64,000 nucleotides of DNA, taken from sequence record ON568341.1; one strand, 5' to 3'. The notes under the pieces were generated by a model. That model was not told the origin of the DNA and ran no database searches. It saw only the letters and a program-made list of their open reading frames with translations. Numbering within the stretch: the stretch's first letter is position 1; each line of letters opens with the position of its first letter. The stretch comes from Escherichia phage UE-S1. Made by a program: the position numbers and the translations under genes. Positions 6,375-23,661 of this stretch are shown here, in pieces.

Positions 6375-6375
6375 T

Positions 6376-7439: not shown

Positions 7440-7450
7440 TTTAAAATATT

Positions 7451-7476
7451 AAAGCCAGCACAAGAGCACTGGCTTT
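7451..7476. terminator. bidirectional terminator hairpin between convergent genes
   Basis: AAAGCCAG-10 nt loop-CTGGCTTT flanked by A/T runs. Confidence 0.5.
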
Positions 7477-7480
7477 AATA

Positions 7481-8626: not shown

Positions 8627-8704
8627 AATTTTTCTCCTTCATTCATTATACTGTATTTAATCCAATTAAGAAAAGCTAGTATCAAGTACTGGCATTTAAA
8701 AGAA
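8627..8704 (-). promoter_or_regulatory. intergenic cassette: terminator hairpin + TAAATA..TATAAT promoter + SD
   Basis: minus strand reads GCCAGTACTTGATACTAGC hairpin ... TTAAATACAGTATAATGAATGAAGGAG-ATG. Confidence 0.5.
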
Positions 8705-9880
8705 TCAAATTGTCGGAAGTGGGAATTCTTTCATCACCGATGAACTGTTTGCTGCAATATTATCAGGAGATTTACCAGCGTAGTATAATTTATTATTAAT
8801 AAACATATATAGCGTTGCATCGTTCCCTGCTACAAGAGAATTACTTTTCTTAAAAATAACCCCTGGGGGTAAAATAGCTTCAACAAATGAACCTGATTCT
8901 CGTGTTGAATTGTTTGCCAATTGACCATTATTATTATAACCAGTACTATAAATTTTACCTGAACTATAATACACAAGACCACGTGTACTAATGTTTTCTA
9001 TACGAATGAATTCACTATCGTCCGGTACTGTAGTTGATAGAACTGGGTATAACTTATAAGCTGATGTTACATTATTATTACCCAATTGACCATAACCTTG
9101 AAAGCCTAGTGCATACATAGGACATGATTCTGGTGTACCTTTTGTTATAATACCAATATAATTCGAACTACAAAAAATATCCACTGCTTCTACAACATTT
9201 GTACCCTTATATTGAACCCAAGGAAATACATATGATTGTTGTTTGCCATTACCCAAAACACCGGAAGTTGTTGTACCTGTACGCCACATTGTATCATCAA
9301 GTTTAATAATCCAGTTAGCAGTTGTTATAGTTGAACAGAATTTTTTAACATTATCAACCAAGTATGTAAATTTATTATAATATGATGCAGTGTTTATTCC
9401 AAATTTAGCACCAGTATTGTCACCTAACAAATATAAACTATTATCTGTACCTAAAATCAAAACATAATCATGACCCACGTATATCTTTTTGATTTTTGAA
9501 ATACCAAATTGTGTAAAATAGCTGGTACATTCAGTGAATATTGTTACATGATTTGATGTATTATTACCTAGCCATTTATCTAAACCACTATAAAAGAACC
9601 TATCATCATTTGTGCGTATTAGACAAAAAGAATTATTTGTACTGCACCAGAAATCTTTGACATTACTATATATTTTTGTCCATTCAGTTACTTGATTAGT
9701 ATGACCTAAACCAAAAATTCCACCATTTTGTAGTCCCATAGCCCATATTGAACCATTTTTATCAAGAAGCATTGTGCATGTAAATGAATACCCACACGCT
9801 GGAGTAACTAATTTAACAAAATTGGGAATATATGGTAAAACTTTATTCCCATAATTCACCATTCTTCCAAAAGGTAACAT
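8705..9880 (-). CDS. RCC1-like beta-propeller protein with MLPFGRM tag (paralog 8)
   Basis: N-term MLPFGRMVNYGNK; STGYNNNGQLANN, LGFQGYGQLGNNN repeats. Confidence 0.7.
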   Translation of the reverse strand: MLPFGRMVNYGNKVLPYIPNFVKLVTPACGYSFTCTMLLDKNGSIWAMGLQNGGIFGLGHTNQVTEWTKIYSNVKDFWCSTNNSFCLIRTNDDRFFYSGLDKWLGNNTSNHVTIFTECTSYFTQFGISKIKKIYVGHDYVLILGTDNSLYLLGDNTGAKFGINTASYYNKFTYLVDNVKKFCSTITTANWIIKLDDTMWRTGTTTSGVLGNGKQQSYVFPWVQYKGTNVVEAVDIFCSSNYIGIITKGTPESCPMYALGFQGYGQLGNNNVTSAYKLYPVLSTTVPDDSEFIRIENISTRGLVYYSSGKIYSTGYNNNGQLANNSTRESGSFVEAILPPGVIFKKSNSLVAGNDATLYMFINNKLYYAGKSPDNIAANSSSVMKEFPLPTI

Positions 9881-9953
9881 ATTCTCTCCTTATTCATTAT
9901 AATATATATTTAATACAAATAATAATGCCAGTACTCAAATACTGGCATTATTA
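9881..9953 (-). promoter_or_regulatory. intergenic cassette: terminator hairpin + promoter + SD
   Basis: GCCAGTATTTGAGTACTGGC hairpin; GTATTAAATATATATTATAATGAATAAGGAG. Confidence 0.5.
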
Positions 9954-11144
9954 TTACAATTGTCTAGGTGTATCCAGAACATATCTATTTGTGCTAGGAC
10001 CGCCATCATCATAAGTTCCGGTTGAATATATATTTTTCATATCAGCAGTTAGAAATGTACGATACGAACCTCTATATATTTTTATTTTATCATACATATT
10101 ATATGTAATTTGTGCTGGCATTGGACATATAGTAAATCTTCCAATAGTCCCCACTGAACCTACCCCCAATGAGCCAGCATAACTACTCGCATTTAAACCA
10201 GTTGCATATACACCAGAACTCGTAACTAGTATACTAGATTGTGATGGGTATCCAGTATGAATTGAATACAAAGTTCCAGGTGGTAATGTCGTACTATTTC
10301 TCCCTAATACAGCAAGTGCCGAACTGGATGTGGTATTATTACCCCATGCACCATTACTTGCTAAACCACCAACTAGGAACTGACGTACACCCGTACTTGG
10401 ATTTTCCACCAAAGCACTGACTGAACCCATTGAGCATCCAGTGTATTGTAACGTTTTTGTGTATGTTGTACTTGGCTGATATAAAGTATATTCATTATAT
10501 AAAGTCCATGTAGTACTGGAACTTATACCGGATGTACCACCACCAATATATAAATTATTTTGTTTATCAAACAACATTACACAGTTATTTGTTGACATTA
10601 TTTGTGCAATATCAACATTAGGTGTTACTGCTTTTACAAATGAACCATCTGTTATTTGTTGAGTTTTTCCAGTACCATCAGCGAATTGTCTAGCCCCACT
10701 CCAACCAGTACTCCATATTGTATTATTATCCATTAAGAAAGTAAACCACGTAGTACCTGCATACATCTGTTTAATTGAAGTACTTGAACTTTGTTTGTAC
10801 AAATTTTCAATATATTGGTTATAACTTAAAAATGATGTAGTACTGGTTGGTAAACCAATATGACTACCAAATCCACAATAGAAATAATTTAAGTCATTAT
10901 CTTGAACTAACAAAGTTCCTTGTGTGATCCAGCAATCATTAACGTTTTCTCTAATTAATGTCCATGTTCTTAATGCAGTGTTGTTTCCTCTCCCAAACTG
11001 CCCAAAACTATTATTACCTCGTGCATATAGTTGACCATCAGTATAAAGTACAACAACATCAGTATCGGTTGTTAGTATTTTCTTAATTTGAAGTGGGATA
11101 GGTACAATATTCCCGTACTTAACCATTCTTGCAAAAGGTAACAT
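9954..11144 (-). CDS. RCC1-like beta-propeller protein with MLPFGRM tag (paralog 7)
   Basis: N-term MLPFARMVKYGNI; ARGNNSFGQFGRGNNT repeat. Confidence 0.7.
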   Translation of the reverse strand: MLPFARMVKYGNIVPIPLQIKKILTTDTDVVVLYTDGQLYARGNNSFGQFGRGNNTALRTWTLIRENVNDCWITQGTLLVQDNDLNYFYCGFGSHIGLPTSTTSFLSYNQYIENLYKQSSSTSIKQMYAGTTWFTFLMDNNTIWSTGWSGARQFADGTGKTQQITDGSFVKAVTPNVDIAQIMSTNNCVMLFDKQNNLYIGGGTSGISSSTTWTLYNEYTLYQPSTTYTKTLQYTGCSMGSVSALVENPSTGVRQFLVGGLASNGAWGNNTTSSSALAVLGRNSTTLPPGTLYSIHTGYPSQSSILVTSSGVYATGLNASSYAGSLGVGSVGTIGRFTICPMPAQITYNMYDKIKIYRGSYRTFLTADMKNIYSTGTYDDGGPSTNRYVLDTPRQL

Positions 11145-11215
11145 ATTTTCCTCCTTTATTCATTATACTATATTTAATCAAAAAGAAAAGCCAGTATCAA
11201 GTACTGGCCTATATT
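11145..11215 (-). promoter_or_regulatory. intergenic cassette: terminator hairpin + promoter + SD
   Basis: GCCAGTACTTGATACTGGC hairpin; GATTAAATATAGTATAATGAATAAAGGAGG. Confidence 0.5.
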
Positions 11216-11953
11216 TTAGACTGAATTGTTAGGATAATATCTCCCCCTTCCCCATATTATTCGCACAGCACCACCACCAGCAGCCGTATAAGAAGAATTA
11301 TCCCATATACTACCACCACCACCATACCTCTTACCAGCACCACCACTACCAGCACCACCATTATATGAACCACCGTAGCTACCACCAATACCATTAGCAC
11401 CTTGAACAATGATACCAGTACCACCACCCGTACCAATGAACGAGGTACTATAGAATGTACCACCCCCACCGCCGCCACCAGCACCATTTTCACCAGTGAT
11501 TGCATCTCCGTTACCACCTTTACCAGTGTAGCCACCAGCACCACCACCAATGACTGCACCACCACTTACACCAGTGTTGCCACCATTACCACCACCATCA
11601 TTAATAGCGTTAGCAGCTTTTCCACCTAGTCCACCAACCGTATATGCACCAGTGAAGCTAACACATAGTTTTTCAGTTCCACGATATAAACCGTTTTCAA
11701 CTGCTGTAGTAGTGTTGGGATGTGTAAGAGAAACACTTAAGTACTCACCACCAGAAACCGGAATATTATTACGCCACGATAAGCCGCCACCAGCACCACG
11801 TTGACCACCCGGCGAAATAACACATACTGATATTTCGGTAACGCCAGCAGGAACTGTAAATTGTGTTGTTCCTATTGTCGTGATTAATTGTTCACCATGT
11901 GGCTTATATTCAATTTTATTCCCGAACTTAACCATTCTTCCAAAAGGTAACAT
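11216..11953 (-). CDS. glycine-rich protein with MLPFGRM tag (paralog 6, non-propeller)
   Basis: N-term MLPFGRMVKFGNK; long GGxGG runs (..GGGNGGNTGVSGG..GAGGGGGGG..). Confidence 0.65.
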   Translation of the reverse strand: MLPFGRMVKFGNKIEYKPHGEQLITTIGTTQFTVPAGVTEISVCVISPGGQRGAGGGLSWRNNIPVSGGEYLSVSLTHPNTTTAVENGLYRGTEKLCVSFTGAYTVGGLGGKAANAINDGGGNGGNTGVSGGAVIGGGAGGYTGKGGNGDAITGENGAGGGGGGGTFYSTSFIGTGGGTGIIVQGANGIGGSYGGSYNGGAGSGGAGKRYGGGGSIWDNSSYTAAGGGAVRIIWGRGRYYPNNSV

Positions 11954-12024
11954 AATTCCCTCCTTTATTTGTTATACTATATTTAATACAAAAAGAAAAG
12001 CCAGTACTCAGTACTGGCATAATG
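11954..12024 (-). promoter_or_regulatory. intergenic cassette: terminator hairpin + promoter + SD
   Basis: GCCAGTACTGAGTACTGGC hairpin; GTATTAAATATAGTATAACAAATAAAGGAGGG. Confidence 0.5.
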
Positions 12025-13167
12025 TCAATAAGTATCCCAAGGTAATGGTGTCTTCCTAAATCCATACCTGGTTGTGCTCGCACCATCACCAGCAATGTAT
12101 CTACCTATACCACATTGGTATAACTCTGTACTACTACATATAGCACCACCTATAGTACCACTACTCCACTGAATTATATTAGAATATGTTATTGGTAAAT
12201 CACTACATTTAGTATATACAGCAACGGTAGAAGCACCACTAATACCACCAAACATACTTCGCTTAGCACCAGTGTAATATATACCATCTGGACTCATAAA
12301 TGCAGAGGTGTAAGTTGTACTGCAATCCACTGGACTTCTTATTGTATTAAGATCGCCTGGATATGTTCTGACACCAAAGGTGTATACATTACCATCAGTT
12401 GTAATACCATTACCTAACTGCCCACTGTTTTGTCCACCACATGTAAGCAACGATGCAGAACCAGAAACAATTGCAGTAGCATTATACGAAGTGCCCATTG
12501 CAATAGAAGCACCAGACAATAGTTTTGGAGTAACAATAGCTGTTGTATTACCCTGGCCTAATTCACCATTTGTGTTTCGTCCCCATGCGTATATGGAAGT
12601 AGTATCCAACCTACATAGTACTGAACCATAACTAAACGTATATCGCATGTCAATTACCGCAGAAGGCAAATTAACCTTAGTTGCAACACTAATAACACCA
12701 CCAGTAACACCACTGTTTGCGTTCATGTTACGACCATATGCATATAAAGAACCATCTGAAGTTTTAATATGCATCATACCATCTGTACAATATAATGCAT
12801 CTATACTCTCCACCGCAACCGGACCCATACTGGTAGTTATATCGGTCCACCCAAGAGTAGTAGTACTAGAAATTAAGTTATTTCCTGCGTATAGTATTCT
12901 ATTATTATTAGTAACTACAACTGTATATCTGGCAGTAACACCAATTAATCGAACATCAGTATATATCTTAGACCACGCACCTAATGAATTGGTGTTTGCA
13001 TCCAAAAAGCCCAACTGCCCATCTGTATTGTATCCAATGCCCCATACATCACCTGCACTGTCCAATAACACTTCATGTGAAAATCCAATCTTAAAATCTT
13101 TTATTGTAGGAACTACCGGATCTGGTGCAATATTCCCGTACTTAACCATTCTAGTAAAAGGTAACAT
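12025..13167 (-). CDS. RCC1-like beta-propeller protein with MLPFGRM tag (paralog 5)
   Basis: N-term MLPFTRMVKYGNI; WGIGYNTDGQLGF, WGRNTNGELGQGN, CGGQNSGQLGNG repeats. Confidence 0.7.
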   Translation of the reverse strand: MLPFTRMVKYGNIAPDPVVPTIKDFKIGFSHEVLLDSAGDVWGIGYNTDGQLGFLDANTNSLGAWSKIYTDVRLIGVTARYTVVVTNNNRILYAGNNLISSTTTLGWTDITTSMGPVAVESIDALYCTDGMMHIKTSDGSLYAYGRNMNANSGVTGGVISVATKVNLPSAVIDMRYTFSYGSVLCRLDTTSIYAWGRNTNGELGQGNTTAIVTPKLLSGASIAMGTSYNATAIVSGSASLLTCGGQNSGQLGNGITTDGNVYTFGVRTYPGDLNTIRSPVDCSTTYTSAFMSPDGIYYTGAKRSMFGGISGASTVAVYTKCSDLPITYSNIIQWSSGTIGGAICSSTELYQCGIGRYIAGDGASTTRYGFRKTPLPWDTY

Positions 13168-13240
13168 AATTCCCTCCCTTATTCATTATAATATATTTAA
13201 TACAAAAAAGAAAAGCCAGTACTTGAGTACTGGCATTATG
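13168..13240 (-). promoter_or_regulatory. intergenic cassette: terminator hairpin + promoter + SD
   Basis: GCCAGTACTTGAGTACTGGC(13215-13234); GTATTAAATATATTATAATGAATAAGGGAGG. Confidence 0.5.
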
Positions 13241-14350
13241 TTATTTTGGTAAATCAATTTTAGTAAAGACTGCAACATCCTCGCTTGCCCCAGGAATGGC
13301 GTAATACGATCCAGTACTATATACATCTCCGTCTTTGGTTAATATTGATGTTAAACCATCACTAAAAAGAACATCCCTAATCTCACTAACTTCAACGGGT
13401 AATTGTAAATTAGTAGCACTATATATTGCACCAGTTTGAGAATTGTTTAATCCCAAACCACGGTTCGCCCCAACACCCTTCTGATATGTACTAGTAATTA
13501 TCATTTGTGTAGCAGTATTTAAGGCAGGTGAATTCGTCATAAACAACGGAGAACTATTAGGCAAAGTACTTGCAGGAACTGCACGAAATGAAGTTGTATC
13601 TGAACTAAGAAAGTTTGGCGTTTGACCACATACGAAATATGATGTACCATTATAGTAATTAAATGCATTACCACCAATGACTGCATCGATTACACCAGAG
13701 CTACGTAATCCCCACGTGTTAATTTGTGTTCGGTTCCCCGTGCCATGCTGACCCCTGTCATTCCACCCAGAACTATATAACTTATTATCTAATGTAATAT
13801 ACATACTGTCATTTGCATTCGTCATTACTTTACGCACATTAGTAGCACATTGAGTTAATGTGTAAATTGATGATGAACCAATACCTAAAGCACCACGATA
13901 TCCATTAGCTCCTGCACCATAGAGTACTGAACTAGTGCTAAGTACAAATATTAAACCATACGAACATACAATATTAGCAATTTCACTCACTGGTATAGCA
14001 CTGGTAAACCAATTAGTTCTTTCAACTAATACTGTGCTGTAAGAAGTAGTTGTAGACGATGTGAACCAATATGTTTCCCCTGATGTCCATATAGTATTAT
14101 CATTTTTAATAATAACAAGTGCACGATCACCTACGAAAAAATTAGAAACATCTGCACTTACTAATATCCATGAAGATACCGTGTTTTTATTACCATTTCC
14201 AGATTCACCACCTTGATTTCTACCTATGTAATATAAATCATGTGAATCAGTTAATAAGAATTGACCCTGTGTAGATGCACCAACTTTAATTATATTTTTA
14301 GGACCAGGTACAATATTCCCATAATCAAACATTCTTACAAAAGGTAACAT
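13241..14350 (-). CDS. RCC1-like beta-propeller protein with MLPFGRM tag (paralog 4)
   Basis: Start set at conserved MLPFVRMFDYGNI (track ORF extends 5 codons upstream); SSGWNDRGQHGTGN repeat. Confidence 0.65.
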   Translation of the reverse strand: MLPFVRMFDYGNIVPGPKNIIKVGASTQGQFLLTDSHDLYYIGRNQGGESGNGNKNTVSSWILVSADVSNFFVGDRALVIIKNDNTIWTSGETYWFTSSTTTSYSTVLVERTNWFTSAIPVSEIANIVCSYGLIFVLSTSSVLYGAGANGYRGALGIGSSSIYTLTQCATNVRKVMTNANDSMYITLDNKLYSSGWNDRGQHGTGNRTQINTWGLRSSGVIDAVIGGNAFNYYNGTSYFVCGQTPNFLSSDTTSFRAVPASTLPNSSPLFMTNSPALNTATQMIITSTYQKGVGANRGLGLNNSQTGAIYSATNLQLPVEVSEIRDVLFSDGLTSILTKDGDVYSTGSYYAIPGASEDVAVFTKIDLPK

Positions 14351-14425
14351 AACTAAAATCTCCATATAATAATTATAATGTATTTACAAAAAAATACCAG
14401 CACATATTTCAGTACTGGTATAATG
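14351..14425 (-). promoter_or_regulatory. intergenic cassette: terminator hairpin + promoter + SD
   Basis: CCAGTACTGAAATATGTGCTGG hairpin; TGTAAATACATTATAAT...GGAG. Confidence 0.45.
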
Positions 14426-15607
14426 TTATGGTAAAATAATAGCTTGTAACGAACTCATACCCAATGTTGGAACACTCGCCTGTGGTGCTGGAGAATTCAA
14501 TTTTGGTGATGAAACCGCATATGACATTCCTGAACCCAAATCTGGATCAAAAACTACAGCACAATAATTCCCACTATATATAAGTCCATTCTTGTATCCT
14601 TGTGCACTTTGAATGCATTTCGTGAACGTACCAATATCTGTAGTGGCATTTATTAAGTTCCTCCCACGATAACCGCAGGTGTATATGAAATTATCATCGC
14701 CTATGTACATACTAGAATCCCCAGAAGAACTACATAGATACGACATATAAGCACGCATGTTTTTAGGAGCAACTGACAATGTACCTGCATAGAATTTATT
14801 ATTCGAACCCGTAATATTACCATCACCCAATGCACCAAAACTTCCCCAGCCAGTACCGTAATATCTCTTATCACTCAAAAATATAATACAGTTGTTATTA
14901 CACATCTTGATTTGATATATCAATGAAGGATCAATCCCAGGGAATGATTCAGTGAATGTTAGAACAGCCGGATCAGTACTAGCATTACATTGATGATATG
15001 TATTAGTACCAGCGGACAAGATTGTTCCATTAGCTAACAGAATTCTCGCAGTACCAGTACCAGCAGTACAAGCAACTGCACTTCCTGCACTTCCGGTGTA
15101 TATTTGTCTGAAAGTAAAGAAACCAACAGTTTTACTTCCCTGCCCACTCCAACCAGTATTATCAACTCCACACGCCCATACTGAACCATCTTGCATGATC
15201 ATCATTACACCAAAGCGTTCTATTGAAATATAAACAATCTTCGTTGTATCAACTGCACTAAATCTAGAAGTTATATCAGTCCATACCTTAACACTTACCG
15301 CCGTCGCACTGGAAGTAGGATCTTCACCAGCTATCATTATCCTCCCATTGTTAGTAAGATACATTGTCTGACTATAACCAGTACTACAAAACTTAACACT
15401 ATCAGTCTCTGGAACTTTTAACCACTCGTTGTAACGTGTTACGTTAGTGTTATTACCTAACTGATAATAGTTATTCATCCCAGATACATATAACACACCA
15501 TCCTTTATTAAACTATAAGTCGCACTATAGTCACTACAGGTATAACGTGTACCCACAGGTGGCTCAACGACGTTCCCGTACTTAACCATTCTCCCAAAAG
15601 GTAACAT
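14426..15607 (-). CDS. RCC1-like beta-propeller protein with MLPFGRM tag (paralog 3)
   Basis: N-term MLPFGRMVKYGNV; TGWGSFGALGDGN, MNNYYQLGNN repeats. Confidence 0.7.
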   Translation of the reverse strand: MLPFGRMVKYGNVVEPPVGTRYTCSDYSATYSLIKDGVLYVSGMNNYYQLGNNTNVTRYNEWLKVPETDSVKFCSTGYSQTMYLTNNGRIMIAGEDPTSSATAVSVKVWTDITSRFSAVDTTKIVYISIERFGVMMIMQDGSVWACGVDNTGWSGQGSKTVGFFTFRQIYTGSAGSAVACTAGTGTARILLANGTILSAGTNTYHQCNASTDPAVLTFTESFPGIDPSLIYQIKMCNNNCIIFLSDKRYYGTGWGSFGALGDGNITGSNNKFYAGTLSVAPKNMRAYMSYLCSSSGDSSMYIGDDNFIYTCGYRGRNLINATTDIGTFTKCIQSAQGYKNGLIYSGNYCAVVFDPDLGSGMSYAVSSPKLNSPAPQASVPTLGMSSLQAIILP

Positions 15608-15680
15608 AATAAAATCTCCGTAATTAAATTATATAGTATTTACAAAAAATACCAGTACATATTTCAGTACTGACCTATTA
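15608..15680 (-). promoter_or_regulatory. intergenic cassette: terminator hairpin + promoter + SD
   Basis: CAGTACTGAAATATGTACTGG hairpin; TGTAAATACTATATAAT...GGAG. Confidence 0.45.
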
Positions 15681-16802
15681 TTAAAAGGGCAACGGTAACT
15701 CAGTAAAAGTACTTACGTCCGGTAAACCATACATTAAATTAGCATCACCACAGTAATACCACTTCGTAGAATCATGTACCACCGATAAACGCTGTGCACA
15801 TAACACTTCCTGTATGTCATTAAACACCATCGGGACTAACTCATATGTATCTGCAAATGAAGATTCACTACCACTCGCATGAAAAGTATTTGTCCCAGCA
15901 TAAAATAACTGATTAGTGTTCTTACCCACAGCAAATGTTATCAAAACCCCATCATTCTCCCATAAAGAAGAAAACTTATCAACACTACCAGAAAGCTCTG
16001 TGTAAGTACTCGTAATGGCACTCGCCGCCGCCGCATTACCCATCTGTTTATTCAAGTTCTGTCCAGCAATAAAATATCTCGTTCGTGCACTAGAATCAGT
16101 ATATAATAACCCAGTGTTCGTAGTCATCATTCCAATGTCCTTAATCGTCATATCAGTCTGTGAATAACTTAGATACGAAGTTAAATTAACATTATTACCC
16201 AACGAACCGTTAGAACTCATGCCACAACGATGTAATATACCACTTGTATCAACGTAGATAGTACTAACTAAACTCGTATACAACTCTTGTACATTATTCG
16301 CAATAAACACAGCAGTCGCCTTATTACTAACCCCACCAAATGATAGGTTATTATCAAATCCCTTAGCGTATAATTGATTATTAGTAGTCAATAATCCAAT
16401 CGTGTAATAAGACATTTTCATATCCCTTACTGTACTCAAATCTACTGCCCCAAATTGATACGTAACATCTGTCCATTTGAAAATCTGTGCACTACCAACA
16501 CCACCCGTTTCAAACCATTTGTCACCACAGTACAATATGCGATTATCCTTAGTAAAGATAACTGTTAACAATCCACTACCACACGCAAACTTTACATCAC
16601 TTCTAACCTTCGTCCAATCAAGTACATAGGTAGTGGTGTTATTACCTATACCTAACTTGCCATAACGGTTATAACCACGCACCCATAAATCACCACTCTT
16701 AGTAATTAATAGTAATGCGTCTCCTGTACTTATTATTCGAAATCCCGAACTAGGATCAGGGGCAATATTCCCGTACTTAACCATTCTCCCAAAAGGTAAC
16801 AT
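15681..16802 (-). CDS. RCC1-like beta-propeller protein with MLPFGRM tag (paralog 2)
   Basis: N-term MLPFGRMVKYGNI; YNRYGKLGIGNNT, MSSNGSLGNN repeats. Confidence 0.7.
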   Translation of the reverse strand: MLPFGRMVKYGNIAPDPSSGFRIISTGDALLLITKSGDLWVRGYNRYGKLGIGNNTTTYVLDWTKVRSDVKFACGSGLLTVIFTKDNRILYCGDKWFETGGVGSAQIFKWTDVTYQFGAVDLSTVRDMKMSYYTIGLLTTNNQLYAKGFDNNLSFGGVSNKATAVFIANNVQELYTSLVSTIYVDTSGILHRCGMSSNGSLGNNVNLTSYLSYSQTDMTIKDIGMMTTNTGLLYTDSSARTRYFIAGQNLNKQMGNAAAASAITSTYTELSGSVDKFSSLWENDGVLITFAVGKNTNQLFYAGTNTFHASGSESSFADTYELVPMVFNDIQEVLCAQRLSVVHDSTKWYYCGDANLMYGLPDVSTFTELPLPF

Positions 16803-16875
16803 ATTTTCCTCCTTTATTCATTATACTATATTTAATACAAAAAGAAATGCCAGTATCAAGTACTGGCATATTAAT
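16803..16875 (-). promoter_or_regulatory. intergenic cassette: terminator hairpin + promoter + SD
   Basis: GCCAGTACTTGATACTGGC hairpin; GTATTAAATATAGTATAATGAATAAAGGAGG. Confidence 0.5.
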
Positions 16876-18024
16876 TCATTGTATAAATGACATATCTACT
16901 TCTGTATAATTAAGAACGTTCTGTCCAGAAATACCACCCATTACTACTATTGCAAGGCCACAATAATATAATTTTCCAGTATCCGTAAGTATAAGTGATC
17001 CAGATGGACTGCGTACCAAATCACACGAACTATTAAAAGAAGTATAAGAAGGAGTATAGGAGTACTGATTATTATTATTACCAACACCTAATTGCCCAAA
17101 CCCATTCGATCCAGAAGCATATAGAACTTCATCTGCTTTGACAATATGTGATGCCATGTTACCAACACAAGTATATAGAGTATAAACTCCTGAACTCAAT
17201 AATGTCGGAGTTTTATATTGTATATCTGTAGATGTAGAAGTACCACCTGTACCAAATTCGTTCCCATATTGTGCACCGAACTGTTTGCCACAAGCGTACA
17301 AATTATTATCCGATTTGATAAAAAATGTACTCTGATAACTTACATTAAAATCTATAACATCCGAAGAAATCATCGTCACCCCAGTAATAGAAGTTTGATT
17401 ACCCGTGCCCAACTGGTAGTAATAGTTAAAACCACAACCCCATAAAGTATTATCTTCTCGCAAATAAATGTTACCAACTGCCTTTTTAACCGAAGTTATA
17501 GTATCTACTCTTTTGAATGTGTTAAAAGAATTAATGTTTGTACCATCACCAAATGATGATATGTTCGATATATTGTTAACTCCACAACAATACAATGTAC
17601 CATCTTTTGTTATCAAATTCACCTTCATATCATAAAAACTACTCATGTATTTTATATCAGAAACATTAACACCACTTGATGTTATCCACGTAGTACAGTC
17701 CGTCCACAAAGTTTTTCTATCAGTTACACCAGTGAATGCCTTCGTGTTACCAGTGATAAAAACTTTTCCAGTACCTTTCTCTTCATACAATTGACAATCA
17801 CTACTGTTATCTTCCAATAGAACTCGTTTAACATTCTCCGCACAAAGAATAAATTTACTCGATGCTACACCTGTACCAGTACCCCAATTCGTCGCAGAAG
17901 ATGCATACAACTTATCAGTATAAGTATCATGAAGATACATAGAATCACTGGAATATATTTTAAAACGCCCTTCTTTCTCAGGTATAATATTCCCGTACTT
18001 AACCATTCTCCCAAAAGGTAACAT
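16876..18024 (-). CDS. RCC1-like beta-propeller protein with MLPFGRM tag (paralog 1)
   Basis: N-term MLPFGRMVKYGNI; GSNGFGQLGVGNNN, FNYYYQLGTGNQT repeats. Confidence 0.7.
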   Translation of the reverse strand: MLPFGRMVKYGNIIPEKEGRFKIYSSDSMYLHDTYTDKLYASSATNWGTGTGVASSKFILCAENVKRVLLEDNSSDCQLYEEKGTGKVFITGNTKAFTGVTDRKTLWTDCTTWITSSGVNVSDIKYMSSFYDMKVNLITKDGTLYCCGVNNISNISSFGDGTNINSFNTFKRVDTITSVKKAVGNIYLREDNTLWGCGFNYYYQLGTGNQTSITGVTMISSDVIDFNVSYQSTFFIKSDNNLYACGKQFGAQYGNEFGTGGTSTSTDIQYKTPTLLSSGVYTLYTCVGNMASHIVKADEVLYASGSNGFGQLGVGNNNNQYSYTPSYTSFNSSCDLVRSPSGSLILTDTGKLYYCGLAIVVMGGISGQNVLNYTEVDMSFIQ

Positions 18025-18060
18025 ATTCCCTCCTTATTCATTATATCATATTTACCCAAA
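18025..18060 (-). promoter_or_regulatory. promoter + SD of first array gene
   Basis: minus strand GGTAAATATGATATAATGAATAAGGAGGG-ATG. Confidence 0.45.
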
Positions 18061-18065
18061 AAACA

Positions 18066-18094
18066 CTTGACACCCTTTCAGTACTGTTGTACAA
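18066..18094 (+). promoter_or_regulatory. sigma70-like promoter (divergent from array)
   Basis: TTGACA(18066-18071), 17 nt spacer, TACAAT(18089-18094). Confidence 0.5.
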
Positions 18095-18120
18095 TAGAAG
18101 GAATATTAGGAGAACTACAT

Positions 18121-18348
18121 ATGACAAATACCCTTAAGTACTACCTCAATACTCTGCCCGACCTAGAGTACGGGAAGTTTCTCGCAGATAGTTCGTGGCT
18201 GATTGAGCTAAAAAAATATAATAGTCCCGGATGCACCCTTATGATGAACAATGCAATTGATACCCTTATAGTGAGTATTTTACATAGCAACATCTACGGG
18301 GATAACAATAAACAATTAACAAAAATCTTAGTACTGCTATCTCTATGA
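18121..18348 (+). CDS. small protein, MNNHKEYY...LLIYRY-type family (75 aa)
   Basis: ATG 18121 with AGGAG SD; C-term hydrophobic ..TKILVLLSL. Confidence 0.5.
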   Translation: MTNTLKYYLNTLPDLEYGKFLADSSWLIELKKYNSPGCTLMMNNAIDTLIVSILHSNIYGDNNKQLTKILVLLSL

Positions 18349-18557
18349 ACACTATGAGCACTGAACAGTTCTACATCAATGCACTACCAACTAAAAGTCT
18401 TCAAGAAAGCTTACTGTATACACAAAAGAATTTTAAAAACTTCAAACGTTGCCCTAAACTACTGAACTCGTACAGGAATAATATTATAAGAAATGTTTTA
18501 CAAGGAGAAGAAAGTATGCAATACTATCACATCCTTATACTTATATTGGAGTACTAA
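18345..18557 (+). CDS. small protein, tandem family
   Basis: ATGA overlap with previous gene; C-term ..YYHILILILEY. Confidence 0.5.
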   Translation: MNTMSTEQFYINALPTKSLQESLLYTQKNFKNFKRCPKLLNSYRNNIIRNVLQGEESMQYYHILILILEY

Positions 18558-18558
18558 T

Positions 18559-18768
18559 ATGAATACTGAACATAAAGAATTCTACACCAAATACCTCAGT
18601 AACGAAGAACAATTGTTTCTAAGAAGTGTATCACCGGTAAGTACCAATACTCAATTCGGTAGAGATTGCTTTAATAATTGTATACGTAGTACCCTAGAAG
18701 CAATCGAATATAATAACAAAAATATTATGTACTCAGGTTTAATAGGACTAATATTCTTCTATGAATAA
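18559..18768 (+). CDS. small protein, tandem family
   Basis: TAATATG junction; MNTEHKEFYTKYL..; C-term LIGLIFFYE. Confidence 0.5.
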   Translation: MNTEHKEFYTKYLSNEEQLFLRSVSPVSTNTQFGRDCFNNCIRSTLEAIEYNNKNIMYSGLIGLIFFYE

Positions 18769-18955
18769 TCATAAAGATTTCTATGGTAGTAAACTACACA
18801 AACATGAACAGCTATCATTCTCTTTAGCACCACCTATGAGAAAGGATAATCTATATTATAATTACGATTTCAGGATGGCGACACGTTATGCAATAGAACA
18901 TCAGTTCCCTGAAACTAAGTACCGCTCTATCCTGAACCTCATCTTTAAGTTCTAA
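18761..18955 (+). CDS. small protein, tandem family
   Basis: MNNHKDFY N-terminus; overlaps previous stop. Confidence 0.5.
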   Translation: MNNHKDFYGSKLHKHEQLSFSLAPPMRKDNLYYNYDFRMATRYAIEHQFPETKYRSILNLIFKF

Positions 18956-19002
18956 AAACAGCACCAGGGTCCGAGTACTTTAACATAGTAAGGCTAATTA
19001 CA

Positions 19003-19188
19003 ATGAATCATATACGCTACTATTACCAACAACTATCCGACAGGGACAAGTACAGCCACAATTCCCATGTATGGTACTACAAACGCGGCAGTATAAGAGA
19101 CAAACAACATTACTTCTGTATTTCTATTAAAGAAGCACTAACAACTAAGTACACGTACAGAGCAGTACTTAAACTAATCTCTATCTAA
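19003..19188 (+). CDS. small protein (61 aa)
   Basis: ORF in tightly packed array; MNHIRYYYQQL. Confidence 0.45.
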   Translation: MNHIRYYYQQLSDRDKYSHNSHVWYYKRGSIRDKQHYFCISIKEALTTKYTYRAVLKLISI

Positions 19189-19196
19189 GGAATACT

Positions 19197-19376
19197 ATGC
19201 AAGAATTCTATATAGAACATATAACCATAAAAGACCGTTTCATGTACCACACCTTCGTGAAATACTACAAACTGGGAACAAAAAGTACTAAAAATATTAA
19301 TCTCAATAGCTGCATTCATTCTGCACTAACAAAAGATAATCCCTTCAGGGAAATCCTCGCACTAGCATCTGTATAA
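19197..19376 (+). CDS. small protein (59 aa), tandem family
   Basis: AAGGAA SD; MQEFYIEHI..; not in ORF track (under 60 aa). Confidence 0.4.
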   Translation: MQEFYIEHITIKDRFMYHTFVKYYKLGTKSTKNINLNSCIHSALTKDNPFREILALASV

Positions 19377-19386
19377 AGGAAACCAA

Positions 19387-20046
19387 ATGAAACTTAATGC
19401 ACACAGCAAACAATACCTTAAGCACTTTAAGTACCTCAACAGTATTCAAGCAGAATCTTTTACACCAGCATATACGTATCACCCTAATGTACTAAAGAAA
19501 CGAAATAAAAAGAAAAAATCCAGAAATGTTCTCGTATCTAAGAACCTCAAATCGTACTTGAAGAAAAATAATATAGCTCTTGCTTTTATTAATATCTATA
19601 ATACTGATTTAAAAGTATTGAGTACTAATACCAGCACAAAAGCACTAAAGAATGCATCTATCTATATACACATGGATAATATCCCGTGCACTATAATTCT
19701 ATCTTCCGGGAATGTATACTTCTTCGGGAATTGTAATAGCACCCATGATATCAGTACTGCACAATTCCAAATCGGAGATATGTACTGCATGGGTTCAGAA
19801 AAAATACACGATAATATGCACTTCTTCCAAAAGCAACGTACTAACGAAACTGATACAGTACTGCAATTCCTCAAAGAACTAGAACACAAAGAATTATCCG
19901 AGGAAGAAGAATTCATGTACAGTACTGTAATCGATAATCCAGGACTCTATAAAAACGCGTACAAACTAACAAAACATGTACAGGAACTTATCAGTACTGA
20001 TAAGAAAATTCATCACCTCATTACGTATATTTCAAACTATGTATAA
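19387..20046 (+). CDS. hypothetical protein (219 aa)
   Basis: AAGGAAA SD; long ORF inside the small-protein array. Confidence 0.5.
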   Translation: MKLNAHSKQYLKHFKYLNSIQAESFTPAYTYHPNVLKKRNKKKKSRNVLVSKNLKSYLKKNNIALAFINIYNTDLKVLSTNTSTKALKNASIYIHMDNIPCTIILSSGNVYFFGNCNSTHDISTAQFQIGDMYCMGSEKIHDNMHFFQKQRTNETDTVLQFLKELEHKELSEEEEFMYSTVIDNPGLYKNAYKLTKHVQELISTDKKIHHLITYISNYV

Positions 20047-20221
20047 AGAATACTACATAGAGAAACTCCCAATGCATCTACAACACCATATACCAAACGT
20101 TGCATTGGGCATAACCGAGCACGCAAAGATAATGTTCCAACAATGTACTAAGTACACGCTCATATACGATGATAATCCATATATGCTGTACTACGTAGTA
20201 ATGCTAACATTCAGGTACTAA
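20039..20221 (+). CDS. small protein, tandem family
   Basis: MYKEYYIEKLPMHLQ..; C-term YYVVMLTFRY; overlaps previous stop. Confidence 0.5.
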   Translation: MYKEYYIEKLPMHLQHHIPNVALGITEHAKIMFQQCTKYTLIYDDNPYMLYYVVMLTFRY

Positions 20222-20222
20222 T

Positions 20223-20402
20223 ATGAATACTTATAAAGAATTCTACCTCTCGTACCTTAATTCCGATATAGTAACATCCAATACATTCAGTACTAAAATT
20301 ATCTATAATGAAGTAATGAAAGAATGTATTAAAGGTGCTATTAACCCTAAAGATACGTATGACTTGTACTATGCAGTACTAACCCTTGTTTTCACGAAAT
20401 AA
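20223..20402 (+). CDS. small protein (59 aa), tandem family
   Basis: TAATATG junction; MNTYKEFYLSYL..YAVLTLVFTK. Confidence 0.4.
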   Translation: MNTYKEFYLSYLNSDIVTSNTFSTKIIYNEVMKECIKGAINPKDTYDLYYAVLTLVFTK

Positions 20403-20410
20403 CACATAAT

Positions 20411-20602
20411 ATGAATAACCACAAAGAATACTACATAGAGAAACTCCCAATGTATCTCCAACACCTTCTACCAACAGAACCATTGCGTATAGAAAAAAAC
20501 TACGAAAAAGACTACTTCATTCAGTGCACTAAATCCTCGATATATATTGAAGACTATAATCGAGTACTGTATCACATCCTTTTACTAATATATAAGTACT
20601 AA
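20411..20602 (+). CDS. small protein, tandem family
   Basis: MNNHKEYYIEKLPMYLQ..YHILLLIYKY. Confidence 0.55.
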   Translation: MNNHKEYYIEKLPMYLQHLLPTEPLRIEKNYEKDYFIQCTKSSIYIEDYNRVLYHILLLIYKY

Positions 20603-20603
20603 T

Positions 20604-20792
20604 ATGAATAACCACAAAGAATACTACACACAATTTCTCCCCAGCATTTTGGAACAATACGCCAGATATAAAGTCCCCCTCGATAACGATTTGGCAGTAC
20701 TGGGATTCAATAACTGCATAGAACGAAGTATAGAAAATAGTAATAGCTATGAACAATTATATAACACTATCCTACTTATATTCAGGTACTAA
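20604..20792 (+). CDS. small protein, tandem family
   Basis: TAATATG junction; MNNHKEYYTQFL..YNTILLIFRY. Confidence 0.55.
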   Translation: MNNHKEYYTQFLPSILEQYARYKVPLDNDLAVLGFNNCIERSIENSNSYEQLYNTILLIFRY

Positions 20793-20793
20793 T

Positions 20794-20982
20794 ATGTATA
20801 AAGAATACTACGCAAAATATTTCCCAATGTATCTCAGAACTAATCTATTAGATAAACCTCGCGATATCAATGCACAAAACGATAAAGTGTACTTTATTAT
20901 GTGCACTAAAGCATGTATACTAGATCATGACAGCTACCATCGAGTACTGTATCATACACTGTACCTAGCTTTCGTATACTAA
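20794..20982 (+). CDS. small protein, tandem family
   Basis: TAATATG junction; MYKEYYAKYFPMYL..YHTLYLAFVY. Confidence 0.5.
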   Translation: MYKEYYAKYFPMYLRTNLLDKPRDINAQNDKVYFIMCTKACILDHDSYHRVLYHTLYLAFVY

Positions 20983-21017
20983 AATGTACTCCGGTTTAAT
21001 AGGACTAATATTCTTCT

Positions 21018-21197
21018 ATGAATAATCATAAAGATTTCTACATAAGCCATCTGGATATAAACTCCCAAATGCTTATACTACTAAACACAATAGATTTCAA
21101 GGATAAGAAAAAGATCCAACAATTCATTGACCATACGGACCGTGCTGTGAACCAAAATTATATGTACTACATTCTCGCCCTAATATACAGGTACTAA
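21018..21197 (+). CDS. small protein (59 aa), tandem family
   Basis: MNNHKDFYISHL..YYILALIYRY. Confidence 0.45.
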   Translation: MNNHKDFYISHLDINSQMLILLNTIDFKDKKKIQQFIDHTDRAVNQNYMYYILALIYRY

Positions 21198-21198
21198 T

Positions 21199-21384
21199 AT
21201 GCATAGAGAATACTATATACAATTTGTTAAAGAAAACTACAAACACGCCGTCCCCGTAAACCCTTTAAATTCTAATGACCCAAGTACTATATTCTTGTTC
21301 CATGACGCAATACGTACAGTACTCAATACTAAAGATGAACAAGTGCAGTACGTATTCTTACTTTTACTTATATACAGACACTAA
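21199..21384 (+). CDS. small protein, tandem family
   Basis: TAATATG junction; MHREYYIQF..FLLLLIYRH. Confidence 0.5.
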   Translation: MHREYYIQFVKENYKHAVPVNPLNSNDPSTIFLFHDAIRTVLNTKDEQVQYVFLLLLIYRH

Positions 21385-21397
21385 AGCACTAACTAAT

Positions 21398-21598
21398 ATG
21401 AATAAAGAATATAAAGACTTCTATATAAGTAAACTAAAAGAAAATGAACAAGCATGGATTCAACCACTAATAATACTTCCATTTAATAGATATTCATTGA
21501 ACCGATGTACCGAGATTGCTATAGACCCTTGTCCTATTAAAGAGAATGTACAATACAATCAGTACTACTATATCTTAATGCTTATATATAGGAAGTAA
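21398..21598 (+). CDS. small protein, tandem family
   Basis: ATG 21398 (TAATATG-type context); MNKEYKDFYISKL..YYILMLIYRK. Confidence 0.5.
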   Translation: MNKEYKDFYISKLKENEQAWIQPLIILPFNRYSLNRCTEIAIDPCPIKENVQYNQYYYILMLIYRK

Positions 21599-22700
21599 TT
21601 AAACACATATAGACAGGGGAAGCTCCGTAGTGGAAGCATTATACAGGCTTTAACATATGTTGCATATGTTAAAATTCAGCCTGGACAAATGCGATCACTA
21701 GGATTCTCCCCAGGCTAAACCCCGTAACTCTACAGAGAAGCCAATAGCTTCTCTTTGTCATAGGTAGTCATAAGTAATCATATATAAACATTTAAGTAAT
21801 CATTCATACGCACGGTAGTGATTAGTATTGAGTACTAGAGTACAGGAATGTTCACGTTTAATCAAGAACGTAGCAGTACTGCCCCAAAAGTATTCAGTAC
21901 TGAAGGTGTCGATATCCCACTAAGTAGGCAGAGGAAGTCTGCCGTACTTTGTAGTTTCCAAGCTCCTTTTCCATTTTTCAAATTACATCAAATGTATTCA
22001 AAAGTAATCACGTAATGATTAGTACTGAATTATTACTTTCACCTTAATTCCAAATACTCTTTTACCCTTCGGGGAAAATCCCATTACCCCTTGAGGCTCC
22101 AGCAAAAAGTTGGAAAGTACTCCATCGTAAATCTGGATCGTAAAAATTTTGGAGTACCTATGAAATAAAAGTTGGATCTTCGAAAGTTGAAATTTACGTT
22201 GGGACATATAGGATTGATGGGATATAATGAGTTTTGTAGAGATACAGATTATACGATTTCAGTACTGAATAATGAAAGAAAGCTATTGACTTTATGATTC
22301 AGTACTGTATAATGTTCTATATAGAGAGATGAGTTGCCGCAAACAATTCATTCACTCTACCTCCTGTCGTGAGACAGTACAGAAAAGATAGTTCCTCCTA
22401 TGGGTGGTACATCTTTTTATAACCTCTTTTTTCGTAATATAAACAGTACTGATATTAACAGAATGGTGTCAGTACTGATTTTAATCTAATACAATACACC
22501 CACCAGCTTGTGCTGGTGGATTATCCACTAACAGTATTCAGTACTACATGATAGTCTTCATCCTCCTAGGGTAACATAGTGAGGGCTATTGTGGGAGTAC
22601 TGAATACTCCTTTCACAAGATAGATCTATGGTATAGTACTGACGGATTTTGGGCGTAGTAAGCCTAGGTTAAATTTAGACGTAGAGATGTCTAGACCTCC

Positions 22701-22830
22701 AGATGGTTGGAAGTAAAGATGGCTATCCCTCTAGGCGGCTGGATGGCTAGATTTCTAGATGGCTGTACTGCTAGACGTTTGGACGGCTAAACGGCTAGAT
22801 GGTTACACGTCTGGAAGTATAGACGGCTAA
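22701..22830. repeat. iteron-like direct repeats (AGAYGGCT / AGATGGTT), CTAG-rich
   Basis: About 8 copies in 130 bp: agatggtt, agatggct, ggatggctag, agatggct, gacggcta, acggctagatggtt, gacggcta. Confidence 0.6.
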
Positions 22831-23452
22831 ATCAAAATTTTTATTCTGTTTTTTCCAATAGTTCCCCTACCGCGTGAGGATGTTTTTCCCCGCAGTATCT
22901 GGTGTTAGATTTTTCTGAATCTGGAATCATTATCTAATAAACTGGGGGCAATGTCAACGGCCTGGATGAATATTTTTAAAAAATAATCTAGTACTAAATT
23001 TTGGGCGTAACTATGCACCCGGTGGGCTTGAGTCTTTCTCGACTTGATGAAATAATTATATCAGTACTGGAAAAATAAAGCAATACCATGGAAGCAAAAA
23101 AGTTTTAATTAATTTGCTTGCTATCCTGGGCCGGACTATGGTACTATATTTCAGTACTGAGAAAGTGCGTTTACCTGCTAGGGTGCGGGAGTGTATCCTT
23201 TTTTTATATCTTGAATTTTGGGCGTAATTCCGCACCCTCTGGGGTTTCCGCTTTCTCGCGTCTATGTAGTAATTATACGCTTTTTTAGTACTGAGTCAAT
23301 AGCCAAAAACAAAATAATTGAAAATAATTTAACGCGTTTAAACGGCCTGTAAAGCCCTGAAATGATTAGAATGGTGCAAATGTATAGCTTAGGTGTATTA
23401 ATGCGTTAGAATGCGTCTGAGGCCGTTTTACGTGGTATAGGGATGATTTAGT

Positions 23453-23547
23453 GGATTGATTCAGTACTGAATAATAGTACTCCTATATAGAAAGATAGTT
23501 CCCCTGGATTGATTCAGTACTGAATAATAGTACTCCTATATAGAAAG
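23453..23547. repeat. tandem direct repeat (2 x 42 bp, 53-bp period)
   Basis: GGATTGATTCAGTACTGAATAATAGTACTCCTATATAGAAAGA at 23453 and 23506. Confidence 0.7.
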
Positions 23548-23579
23548 AAAACTATTTTAAAAGTATTTGTAGAAAGTAC

Positions 23580-23607
23580 TTGCACAGTACTGAAAAAAGC
23601 GTATAAT
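23580..23607 (+). promoter_or_regulatory. early sigma70-type promoter
   Basis: TTGCAC, 16 nt spacer, TATAAT(23602-23607); GTTTTACATC start region then 5' hairpin. Confidence 0.55.
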
Positions 23608-23661
23608 GTTTTACATCGAGAGCGGGAACACTTCCCTACTCACTTTTAAGAGATTAAAACG

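Follow-up and report, generated by a model that had tools for sequence, protein, structure and literature searches.

The stretch under study occupies positions 21,600–23,661 of a 64,000-nt window (the whole stretch of DNA analysed) from Escherichia phage UE-S1 (ON568341.1). Its first part, 21,600–21,922, is the last unique sequence ahead of the right-hand copy of a long direct terminal repeat, and its second, 21,923–23,661, is a 1,739-bp gene-free leader at the left end of that repeat. The best matches of these 2 kb are Asteriusvirus genomes (121Q/PBECO4-like jumbo phages of E. coli and Salmonella, 310–386 kb), and 41 phage records match at 80–99% identity. The original prediction, an earlier note made from the letters of the window, had described 21,600–23,640 as free of open reading frames (ORFs), and this description holds: the longest ORFs within it encode 62, 59, 56 and 55 residues, none of these four matches a PHROG family, and the 62-residue ORF contains a 1-nt insertion or deletion between strains. 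Both flanking genes match PHROG families; the first gene of the repeat, with its ATG at 23,662, matches phrog_7352 at 1e-58. Three features that the original prediction did not mention are a physical terminus at 21,923, a 19-unit array of 8-bp repeats at 22,677–22,828 and a palindrome of Chi sites at 22,498–22,521.

The left terminus lies between 21,922 and 21,923: AGTAGGCAGAGG, the sequence from 21,923 on, stands at the very start or, in reverse complement, at the very end of each of seven GenBank records. These are the record of fEgEco12, which starts AGTAGGCAGAGGAAGTCTGCC and corresponds to window position 21,923, and six further records with the same end base (vB_Ec-M-J, BF17, G17, E9.1, CRJP21 and ELP-22); when the seven ends are aligned at 21,923, their 90 nt are nearly identical. 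Direct terminal repeats of 20,993 bp were determined for fEgEco12 by PhageTerm and confirmed by restriction digests (PMC13070987), the relatives Sharanji and CBB have terminal repeats of 20,668 and 22,456 bp, and the vB_Ec-M-J record annotates its repeat at 1..21,525. On the right, the fEgEco12 record ends at ...GGGCGGGTAACCT, which is window position 41,804 and gives a repeat of 19,882 bp here. Because of the shared record ends at 21,923 and the fEgEco12 repeat end at 41,804, we read the window as a collapsed representation in which the direct terminal repeat (21,923–41,804, + strand) appears once, while virion DNA would carry it at both ends. By this comparison with relatives, packaged DNA starts at 21,923, directly after CCACTA, and we regard the identification of the terminus and leader as very probable. 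The original suggestion of a packaging control region therefore came near the mark, since the region holds both the left physical chromosome end and the boundary of the ~20-kb direct terminal repeat. The Asteriusvirus/Rak2-like repeats of fEgEco12, vB_Ec-M-J, Sharanji and CBB share this terminus to the base, are similar in length (19.9 kb here versus 20.7–22.5 kb there) and likewise have many small genes with host-type promoters; the accounts of them that we examined give lengths and leave the leader, array, Chi polarity and cut motif undescribed.

The last six bases before the cut, CCACTA (21,917–21,922, + strand), are placed by the record ends and by the PhageTerm and restriction data of fEgEco12. 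CCRCTA also precedes the repeat boundary of CBB (CCGCTA), which was set independently by read depth, and the equivalent site of GAP32 (CCACTA), and TTCAGTACTG is found 5–14 nt upstream of the cut in this window, CBB and GAP32. Further upstream, within the last unique sequence and 210–310 nt before the repeat, an imperfect palindrome of ~100 nt (21,616–21,712) forms a candidate packaging or repeat-duplication element. Palindromic stretches had been noted at 21,601–21,760, and the DNA of 21,612–21,760 indeed folds at −31.8 kcal/mol (z = −6.9), with none of 200 shuffles as good. The inner stem of the palindrome differs by strain yet remains paired (ACATATG/CATATGT versus ACAATT/AATTGT), and CBB and GAP32 have, in the corresponding position, a block similar to its core GCGATCACTAGGATTC. 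On the other side of the cut, 5 nt from the DNA end, the terminator scan marks a G+C-rich hairpin, GGCAGA-GGAAG-TCTGCC (21,927–21,943, + strand), that is invariant in all seven record ends. The left end of T7 offers a comparison: it is gene-free, with short repeat arrays by the terminal repeat and then strong host-polymerase promoters, and a palindrome left of the T7 concatemer junction has been proposed to prime repeat duplication. T7 differs in the size of its repeat (160 bp versus 20 kb), in its 7-bp units, which are unrelated to the met boxes described below, and in inhibiting RecBCD by a protein rather than through Chi. The right boundary of the repeat (GGGTAACCT/TAGCG, the slash marking the cut) has a context unlike that of the left one, and the last 125 nt of the repeat (41,680–41,804) contain the nested inverted repeats AAAAGTCAAGG...CCTTGACTTTT and AATCCCTT...AAGGGATT.

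Base composition changes at the terminus as well. The GC fraction is 0.383 inside the repeat and 0.32–0.34 outside, stepping from 0.34 to 0.38 at the terminus, where GC skew passes from −0.18 to +0.10; the cumulative G−C minimum of the window lies at 22,090. The segment 18,100–21,922 has + strand genes yet a GC skew of −0.18 and an AT skew of +0.17, opposite to those of the + strand genes right of the terminus, with the change of sign at 22,090. Replication control had been offered as one role of the region, and a replication origin, with tandem repeats binding an initiator beside an A+T-rich unwinding stretch, would account for the minimum at 22,090, for a skew that flips sign though genes on both sides are on the + strand, for the density of repeats and for the A+T-rich run at 22,829–22,860 right after the array. 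The skew break coincides, however, with the physical end of the genome and is thereby explained without an origin. DnaA boxes (TTWTNCACA) are absent from 21,600–23,661, the ten in the window all lying elsewhere, no initiator gene is adjacent, and the contiguous 8-bp units are unlike the spaced 17–22-bp iterons of established plasmid and phage origins. The skew minimum thus stands and the iteron-like reading of the repeats does not, and we consider an origin here very improbable.

The leader, which forms the first 1,739 bp of the repeat, is gene-free and under purifying selection. Mean identity to the window over nine Asteriusvirus genomes is 0.86–0.94 in the leader, against 0.88–0.91 at codon positions 1–2 and 0.78 at codon position 3 of the next gene and 0.58 in the sequence before the terminus, which is rich in insertions and deletions; conservation of the leader exceeds that of synonymous sites in the gene that follows. 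Leaders of the same layout occur in Mimasvirus, Eneladusvirus and Alcyoneusvirus. The phages CBB, BF, pEa_SNUABM_12 (pEa12) and XbC2 have leaders of 1.7–1.8 kb that are gene-free save for two small annotated coding sequences in CBB, and these four and GAP32 contain blocks that can be aligned to the window leader. Absence from close relatives, which the original prediction had named as evidence against itself, is not what we find, as the region is kept in 41 phage records and in part across four genera. The most conserved upstream block (22,101–22,200, + strand, 0.93 identity in nine relatives) can be aligned in CBB, BF, pEa12, XbC2 and GAP32 and comprises three copies of AAAGTTGRA together with AAATTTTGGAGTACC. 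This triple had been recognised beforehand; its members start at 22,106, 22,168 and 22,183, and the whole window has one further copy.

The array at 22,677–22,828 consists of 19 contiguous 8-bp units with the consensus AGAYGKCT and matches the published matrix for operators of the host repressor MetJ (met boxes). MetJ operators are usually built of two to five boxes. They are contiguous 8-bp units with the consensus AGACGTCT (PMC3228920), and we called sites with the published thresholds of at least two adjacent boxes, each of at least 3.145 bits, and a total of at least 12.58 bits (Augustus and Spicer 2011, PMC3228920). Sixteen of the 19 boxes pass, in runs of 4, 4 and 7, and the array sums to 111.8 bits, roughly nine-fold the total required of a site; it holds the sole qualifying met-box sites in the 64 kb, and the maximum for any 19 in-register units in simulated sequences was −87 bits. 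As a positive control, the metJ-metB-metL-metF locus of E. coli returned exactly its two known operators, metB/metJ and metF, with four boxes each and 31.2 and 24.9 bits. Per box, the array scores 5.9 bits, compared with 6.2–7.8 in metF and metB. The array thus resembles E. coli operators in its contiguous 8-bp boxes, its AGACGTCT consensus with TA at the junctions, and its secondary preferences and avoided bases, and it differs in having 19 boxes rather than the four of metB/metJ and metF and in lying within a phage terminal repeat.

The array persists in relatives. Other Asteriusvirus genomes have 16–26 in-register boxes, the number of units shifting while the register stays, with the exception of the low-quality record CMSTMSU (UNVERIFIED_ORG), which has only 7. 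CBB, BF, pEa12, XbC2 and GAP32 have 15–17 boxes located 650–810 nt from the left end, and across four jumbo genera the position is fixed at 650–900 nt from the left terminus. A search with the array alone, which was seeded by BLAST and so biased toward relatives of the query, retrieved 67 phage records of three morphotypes: jumbo myoviruses, T5-like siphoviruses and T7-like podoviruses. The T5-like phages, whose termini are not mapped, infect Aeromonas (28 contiguous boxes), Vibrio (15–17) and Providencia, and the T7-like PGT2 has 9 boxes at nt 38–109 from its left end. A logo of 137 non-redundant phage boxes has the consensus AGACGTCT and, like genuine operators, never shows T at position 3 or A at position 6. 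All host genera of the 67 records belong to Enterobacterales, Vibrionales or Aeromonadales save for one Xanthomonas phage, and MetJ is confined to those three orders, Pasteurellales and Alteromonadales (PMC3228920). The relatives of UE-S1 infect E. coli and Salmonella, and MetJ is present in Enterobacterales and in MG1655. A strict three-box pattern scan of IMG/VR returned only two contigs, which makes such arrays uncommon there at the stringency used. Within IMG/VR, the uncultivated 17-kb contig IMGVR_UViG_3300031658_004036 has 40 in-register AGATGTCY boxes at 7,241–7,560 (359 bits), and the 118.5-kb contig IMGVR_UViG_2974638963_000001 has two identical, widely separated 9-box arrays. Our literature searches, which covered MetJ or met boxes together with phages or terminal repeats as well as decoy arrays for transcription factors in phage genomes, turned up no earlier account.

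Between the terminus and the array, 578 nt from the left end, lies a double Chi site, CCACCAGC-TTGT-GCTGGTGG (22,498–22,521), which is a two-way palindrome. It is also a hairpin that the terminator scan marks as terminator-like on the − strand, for leftward transcripts, and it is kept in relatives, where the loop flips between TTGT and ACAA. The window has 14 copies of the Chi octamer GCTGGTGG against 0.47 expected. Ten of these are in the terminal repeat (22,500−, 22,512+, 28,984+, 33,113+, 34,244+, 35,143+, 37,230+, 38,635+, 40,213+ and 40,436+), an over-representation of ~60-fold across unrelated coding and intergenic contexts. Nine of the ten are plus-strand copies that face the right end; the remaining one, at 22,500 on the minus strand, lies closer to the left end than any other. 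Chi on the + strand has the orientation recognised by RecBCD entering at the right end; at each end the exact octamer GCTGGTGG is found on the strand that ends 3′ where RecBCD would enter. The octamer is identical to canonical Chi; here it is concentrated in a phage terminal repeat, and its left-end copy is a two-way palindrome. The same enrichment and polarity occur in fEgEco12 (12 copies versus 0.34 expected) and in CBB (12 versus 0.40, the leftmost on the minus strand). We consider it fairly likely that Chi functions in the terminal repeat. Four further Chi-like octamers, at 11,274–11,794, are accounted for by a Gly-rich ORF of 245 amino acids outside the repeat. Further copies of the leader motif GCGTTAGAA-GCG-T-GAGG-CGTTT and of its inverse (ATTCTAACGCATT) are found on either side of position 28,984, where one of the Chi sites lies (28,945–29,030), which makes this motif a dispersed element of the repeat.

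Predicted promoters flank the array. To its left, promoter P1 (TTGACT-N16-TATAAT, 22,286–22,313, + strand) matches the consensus at 11 of 12 positions and has CAGTACTG abutting its −10 element; identity is 0.90, and both hexamers are invariant in 10 genomes. It would drive a candidate non-coding RNA at 22,320–22,436 (+ strand) with three hairpins, one of which has a GTGA tetraloop and the last of which is followed by U-runs. This candidate of ~100 nt has a minimum free energy of −30 kcal/mol (z = −2.67), RNAalifold on six strains finds 33 pairs, 8 of them with compensatory double changes, and a 20-codon ORF inside it is not kept in JNE01 and EJP2. The unit fits a predicted intrinsically terminated small RNA in having a promoter, a conserved fold and a hairpin with a U-run behind it. 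To the right of the array, a leftward promoter (TTGACA-N17-GATAAT, 22,929–22,957, − strand, 11/12) points through the array toward the Chi hairpin; its TGTCAA and ATTATC are kept in all 10 aligned genomes. Sigma70-like sites are frequent throughout the repeat, with 106 found compared with 67.7 ± 7.5 in shuffles, and nine on the + strand are perfect 12/12 matches.

Taken together, these features suggest that the region is probably a terminal control region of the jumbo phage chromosome. We infer the following steps, given in order of falling confidence: palindrome and cut, early module, Chi, and MetJ array. By analogy with T7, the palindrome at 21,616–21,712 and CCRCTA would mark where the concatemer is cut and where duplication of the repeat starts. 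The repeat would then serve as an early host-takeover module, read rightward by the sigma70 RNA polymerase of the host, with the leader providing the first promoters and at least one short structured RNA (22,320–22,436). The Chi palindrome and the nine rightward Chi sites may turn RecBCD, entering at either end, from a nuclease into a RecA loader, which would protect the genome and allow RecA-mediated recombination between the two repeat copies. Finally, the array could bind up to 19 host MetJ dimers with S-adenosylmethionine (SAM), coating ~150 bp. Such a coat may obstruct the two transcripts that run into the array from opposite sides, retain or ratchet DNA as it enters, or act as a MetJ sponge that de-represses methionine and SAM synthesis. 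The array has the P1 unit on one side and a leftward promoter on the other, and a transcript from the latter would run through the array and end at the Chi hairpin, so that a roadblock or SAM-sensing role is possible; the fixed distance of the array from the end and its occurrence in three phage families suggest an end-related physical role instead. We tentatively entertain a broader proposal, namely that lytic phages of three unrelated families with direct terminal repeats independently placed MetJ arrays of 9–40 units in or near those repeats, near the left end in all cases with a mapped terminus, and that their DNA, on entry or during replication, thereby recruits a SAM-dependent repressor coat. 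The coat would act as an entry ratchet, stop signal, transcription roadblock or sponge and, with the end-facing Chi sites, would make the leader a docking platform for host proteins.

Terminal repeats of relatives were known as lengths; the papers examined do not describe the anatomy of the leader, its cut motif or the polarity of Chi, nor, most notably, the met-box array. This is the first anatomy of a gene-free leader at the end of a jumbo phage chromosome, one that is constrained beyond its neighbouring genes and common to several genera. If the reading is correct, bulk recruitment of MetJ to a phage DNA end would tie infection to, or manipulate, the SAM and methionine state of the cell, oriented Chi sites in the repeat would protect and recombine the ends through RecBCD, and CCRCTA with the upstream palindrome would define the packaging cut. 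Many Asteriusvirus records are circularly permuted and can be re-oriented with the help of the exact terminus and cut motif, and the array and Chi sites are obvious targets in engineering these therapeutic phages.

Several points weigh against this reading of the region. The termini of this isolate are predicted from its identity to relatives, the left end is guarded by just one Chi site, and the promoters, RNA and terminators of the leader are all predictions, as is the binding of MetJ to the array. The array does not lie beside a methionine gene, whereas a MetJ operator is expected to overlap the promoter of a methionine-related gene, typically ~75 bp from its start; no gene lies within 830 nt of the array, and the nearest promoters are 100 nt (leftward, 22,929–22,957) and 360 nt away. 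Klebsiella relatives (Muenster) have no array, although their host has MetJ, and conversely the Xanthomonas phage XbC2 keeps one, although Xanthomonads have no MetJ. Position 6 is G in 44% of phage boxes, whereas the mirror of this base occurs in 10% of genuine half-boxes. The boxes are asymmetric and point in the same direction (AGAYGGCT), the second half-site being biased to GGCT, and this asymmetry could reflect a different, direction-sensitive binding protein.

The array may accordingly be read as an iteron-like site bound by a protein of the phage itself (for instance a ribbon-helix-helix protein, an end-binding protein or the small subunit of terminase), with the likeness to met boxes convergent or irrelevant. 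The asymmetry and common direction of the units would fit such a binder, as would the array of XbC2 on a host reported to lack MetJ, and the fixed position at 650–900 nt from the left terminus in four jumbo genera and at 38–109 nt in PGT2 points to an end-related role. Yet the boxes follow the MetJ matrix in their base preferences, even in which bases they avoid, and the hosts are almost all in MetJ-bearing orders. No phage-encoded MetJ emerged either: when 50,697 phage records were searched by tblastn with E. coli MetJ, a search that covered MetJ homologues and not other folds, the only hits were three records contaminated with host sequence. To our knowledge, no protein of this kind is common to jumbo myoviruses, T5-like siphoviruses and T7-like podoviruses. 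We rate a phage-encoded binder as unlikely and lean slightly toward MetJ as the selected binding partner, judging from the box sequences.

Long terminal repeats with untranslated regions also occur in T5, where a 1.2-kb repeat-rich region at the inner repeat edge contains host DnaA boxes that are proposed to stop injection (bioRxiv 10.1101/866236). This untranslated repeat region 3 resembles the leader in being large, conserved, repeat-rich and gene-free within a long terminal repeat and in having sites that resemble binding sites of host proteins; it differs in carrying DnaA boxes and Fur-like repeats but no met boxes, and in lying at the inner edge of the repeat rather than the outer left edge. 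A T5-like injection stop would operate here if the right end entered first: the leader of the right-hand copy would lie 20 kb in, and a host protein bound to it would halt transfer until early proteins are made. Besides the comparable T5 region, this is favoured by nine of the ten repeat Chi sites facing the right end, as expected if that end is exposed, by the met-box arrays in T5-like phages of Vibrio and Aeromonas, and by Fur-box-like repeats in both the Muenster leader and the T5 injection stop signal (iss). However, the leader lacks DnaA boxes, and its best similarity to the T5 iss (28/32 nt at 9,346–9,376, E = 0.05) is not significant. Two-step transfer is not reported for these phages in the literature examined, and the genes of the repeat are all oriented away from the left end, an arrangement shared with T7, whose left end is the first to enter. 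We judge an injection stop of this kind to be quite improbable.

The conspicuous match of GCGTTAGAATGCG to the T5 injection stop signal (E = 0.05–0.3) is not significant, and homology to that signal was discarded. Fur-box-like repeats (GATAATGATTCTCATTT and AAATGAGAATCATT) occur at 787–1,306 in Muenster, at 9,653–9,718 in T5 and at ~1,034–1,060 in BF and pEa12; this leader has no Fur box, such repeats being found only in the Muenster, BF/pEa12 and T5 regions. Seven Fur-box-like sites of Muenster occupy the slot of the met-box array in its leader, and T5 itself has no array. This distribution hints that different phages load sites for different host regulators into their terminal untranslated regions.

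The right half of the leader contains two repeated modules. Module B (AATTTTGGGCGTAA-GCACCC-GGG-TTTCTCG-ATAATTATA-CAGTACTG) has its first copy at 22,997–23,070 (+ strand, 0.91 identity across relatives) and its second at 23,214–23,299. The two occurrences of the AATTTTGGGCGTAA element reported earlier are well founded, as two 64-nt copies at 22,997 and 23,214 that are 75% alike (repeat family D3), and a third, 12-nt copy lies at 22,646. Paralogous copies of module B are located near 25,170 and 27,090, and cross-genus copies occur too. Between the two leader copies, a weak promoter-like site (TTGCTA-N18-TACTAT; TTGACA-N18-TACTAT in the CBB equivalent) is followed by module A (GAGAAAG...AGGGTGCGGGAGTGTATCC) and a run of seven T; this segment (23,118–23,199, + strand) is the most conserved stretch of the leader, at 0.94 identity, and ends in a terminator-like site at 23,180–23,199 found by the terminator scan. 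The module A motif GGGTGCGGGAGTGTATC recurs at 25,121, 31,766 and 38,130, compared with 0.03 expected. Module B copy 2 is overlapped by a leftward promoter (TTGACT-N16-TATAAT, 23,299–23,272) with invariant −35 and −10 elements and a variable spacer, and its core hairpin is slightly stabler as minus-strand RNA (−4.8 versus −3.2 kcal/mol, seven variants). Long-range pairing of AGGGTGCGG (23,180) with CCGCACCCT (23,231) had seemed compensatory in XbC2 and was dropped when fEgEco12 and JNE01 proved to alter one arm only.

These modules bear on whether the region is mainly a non-coding RNA locus, with several small RNAs, made early, controlling genes of the host or the phage and with the repeats as RNA paralogues. 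Conserved promoters without ORFs are present on both strands, at 22,286 (+), 22,957 (−) and 23,299 (−), the two leftward ones having no downstream ORF; the P1 RNA combines a terminator with eight compensatory pairs, further copies of modules A and B follow promoters in other parts of the repeat, and the module B hairpin is stabler on the minus strand. An RNA locus would leave the terminus, the Chi sites and the 8-bp array unexplained, the z-score of the best candidate is modest at −2.67, and the AGGGTGCGG/CCGCACCCT pairing is lost in fEgEco12 and JNE01. ARAGORN finds no transfer RNA (tRNA) in the region, in line with the failure to find one by eye, and the Rfam scan gives no match at the gathering threshold, the best at E ≤ 1 being a 20-bit plant microRNA model. 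The earlier idea that the region encodes non-coding RNAs is made plausible by one conserved promoter-hairpins-terminator unit with compensatory changes (22,286–22,436) and not by any tRNA or Rfam family; a region devoted mainly to RNA genes is improbable, while the chance that the leader encodes at least one real RNA appears evenly balanced. Set beside the terminal control region that we favour, the original interpretation as a whole is partly supported.

The remainder of the leader leads into the first gene of the repeat. A nearly invariant block with TTTAACGCGTTTAAAC and GCGTTAGAATGCGTCTGAGGCCGTTTTACG (23,301–23,440, 0.91 identity), the one with the non-significant likeness to T5 iss 9,346–9,376, precedes a 53-bp tandem duplication carrying TTCAGTACTGAATAAT (23,452–23,548, + strand). 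This duplication had been described as two 42-bp repeats; the repeat exists, with identical copies of 44 nt (23,452–23,495 and 23,505–23,548, family D6) at a period of 53 bp, and its copy number varies by strain, with one in G17 and more in JNE01. The segment 23,580–23,661 (+ strand), read from the sequence, comprises a putative promoter (TTGCAC-N16-TATAAT), a 5′ leader hairpin and the ribosome-binding site of the first gene, and this promoter-leader cassette recurs at 24,053 (repeat family D13). A 28-nt hairpin, AAAGGGATTGACTCCGGTCAGTCCCTTT, is found at 31,698–31,725, 35,055–35,082, 38,062–38,089 and 40,321–40,348, with the −35 element of the next promoter (TTGACT-N17-TATTAT) in its stem; followed by module A (GGGTGCGGGAGTGTATC), it forms a recurring terminator/promoter cassette of the repeat.

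The palindrome CAGTACTG, highlighted earlier as abundant in the region, does have 11 copies there; as a region-specific feature it is rejected, being genome-wide and merely enriched. The whole window has 68 copies (for example at 42, 14,410, 26,737, 31,026 and 38,514) against 0.87 expected, at densities of 5.4 per kb in the region, 1.8 per kb in the terminal repeat and 0.6–0.8 per kb elsewhere. The extended palindrome is TTTCAGTACTGAAA, and AGTACT occurs 257 times in the window versus 21.6 expected. Sixteen copies of CAGTACTG abut the −10 TATAAT of early promoters; most are elsewhere, including inside genes. The leaders of CBB, GAP32, BF and Muenster are rich in the motif too. It could serve as an operator bound by a dimeric protein, or else as a target of modification; in the literature, a search for the string gave primer-type matches only.

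Two observations concern the rest of the window. At 58,070–58,154, ARAGORN makes an unusual call of a tRNA-Cys with the anticodon ACA at position 38 of an 85-nt gene, and the Rfam tRNA model stays below its gathering score throughout the window, this locus included. Left of the terminus, 7,481–18,024 (− strand) holds nine tandem paralogous ORFs of 373–396 amino acids and the 245-residue ORF mentioned above, with its Gly-rich ACC/ACCACC repeats.

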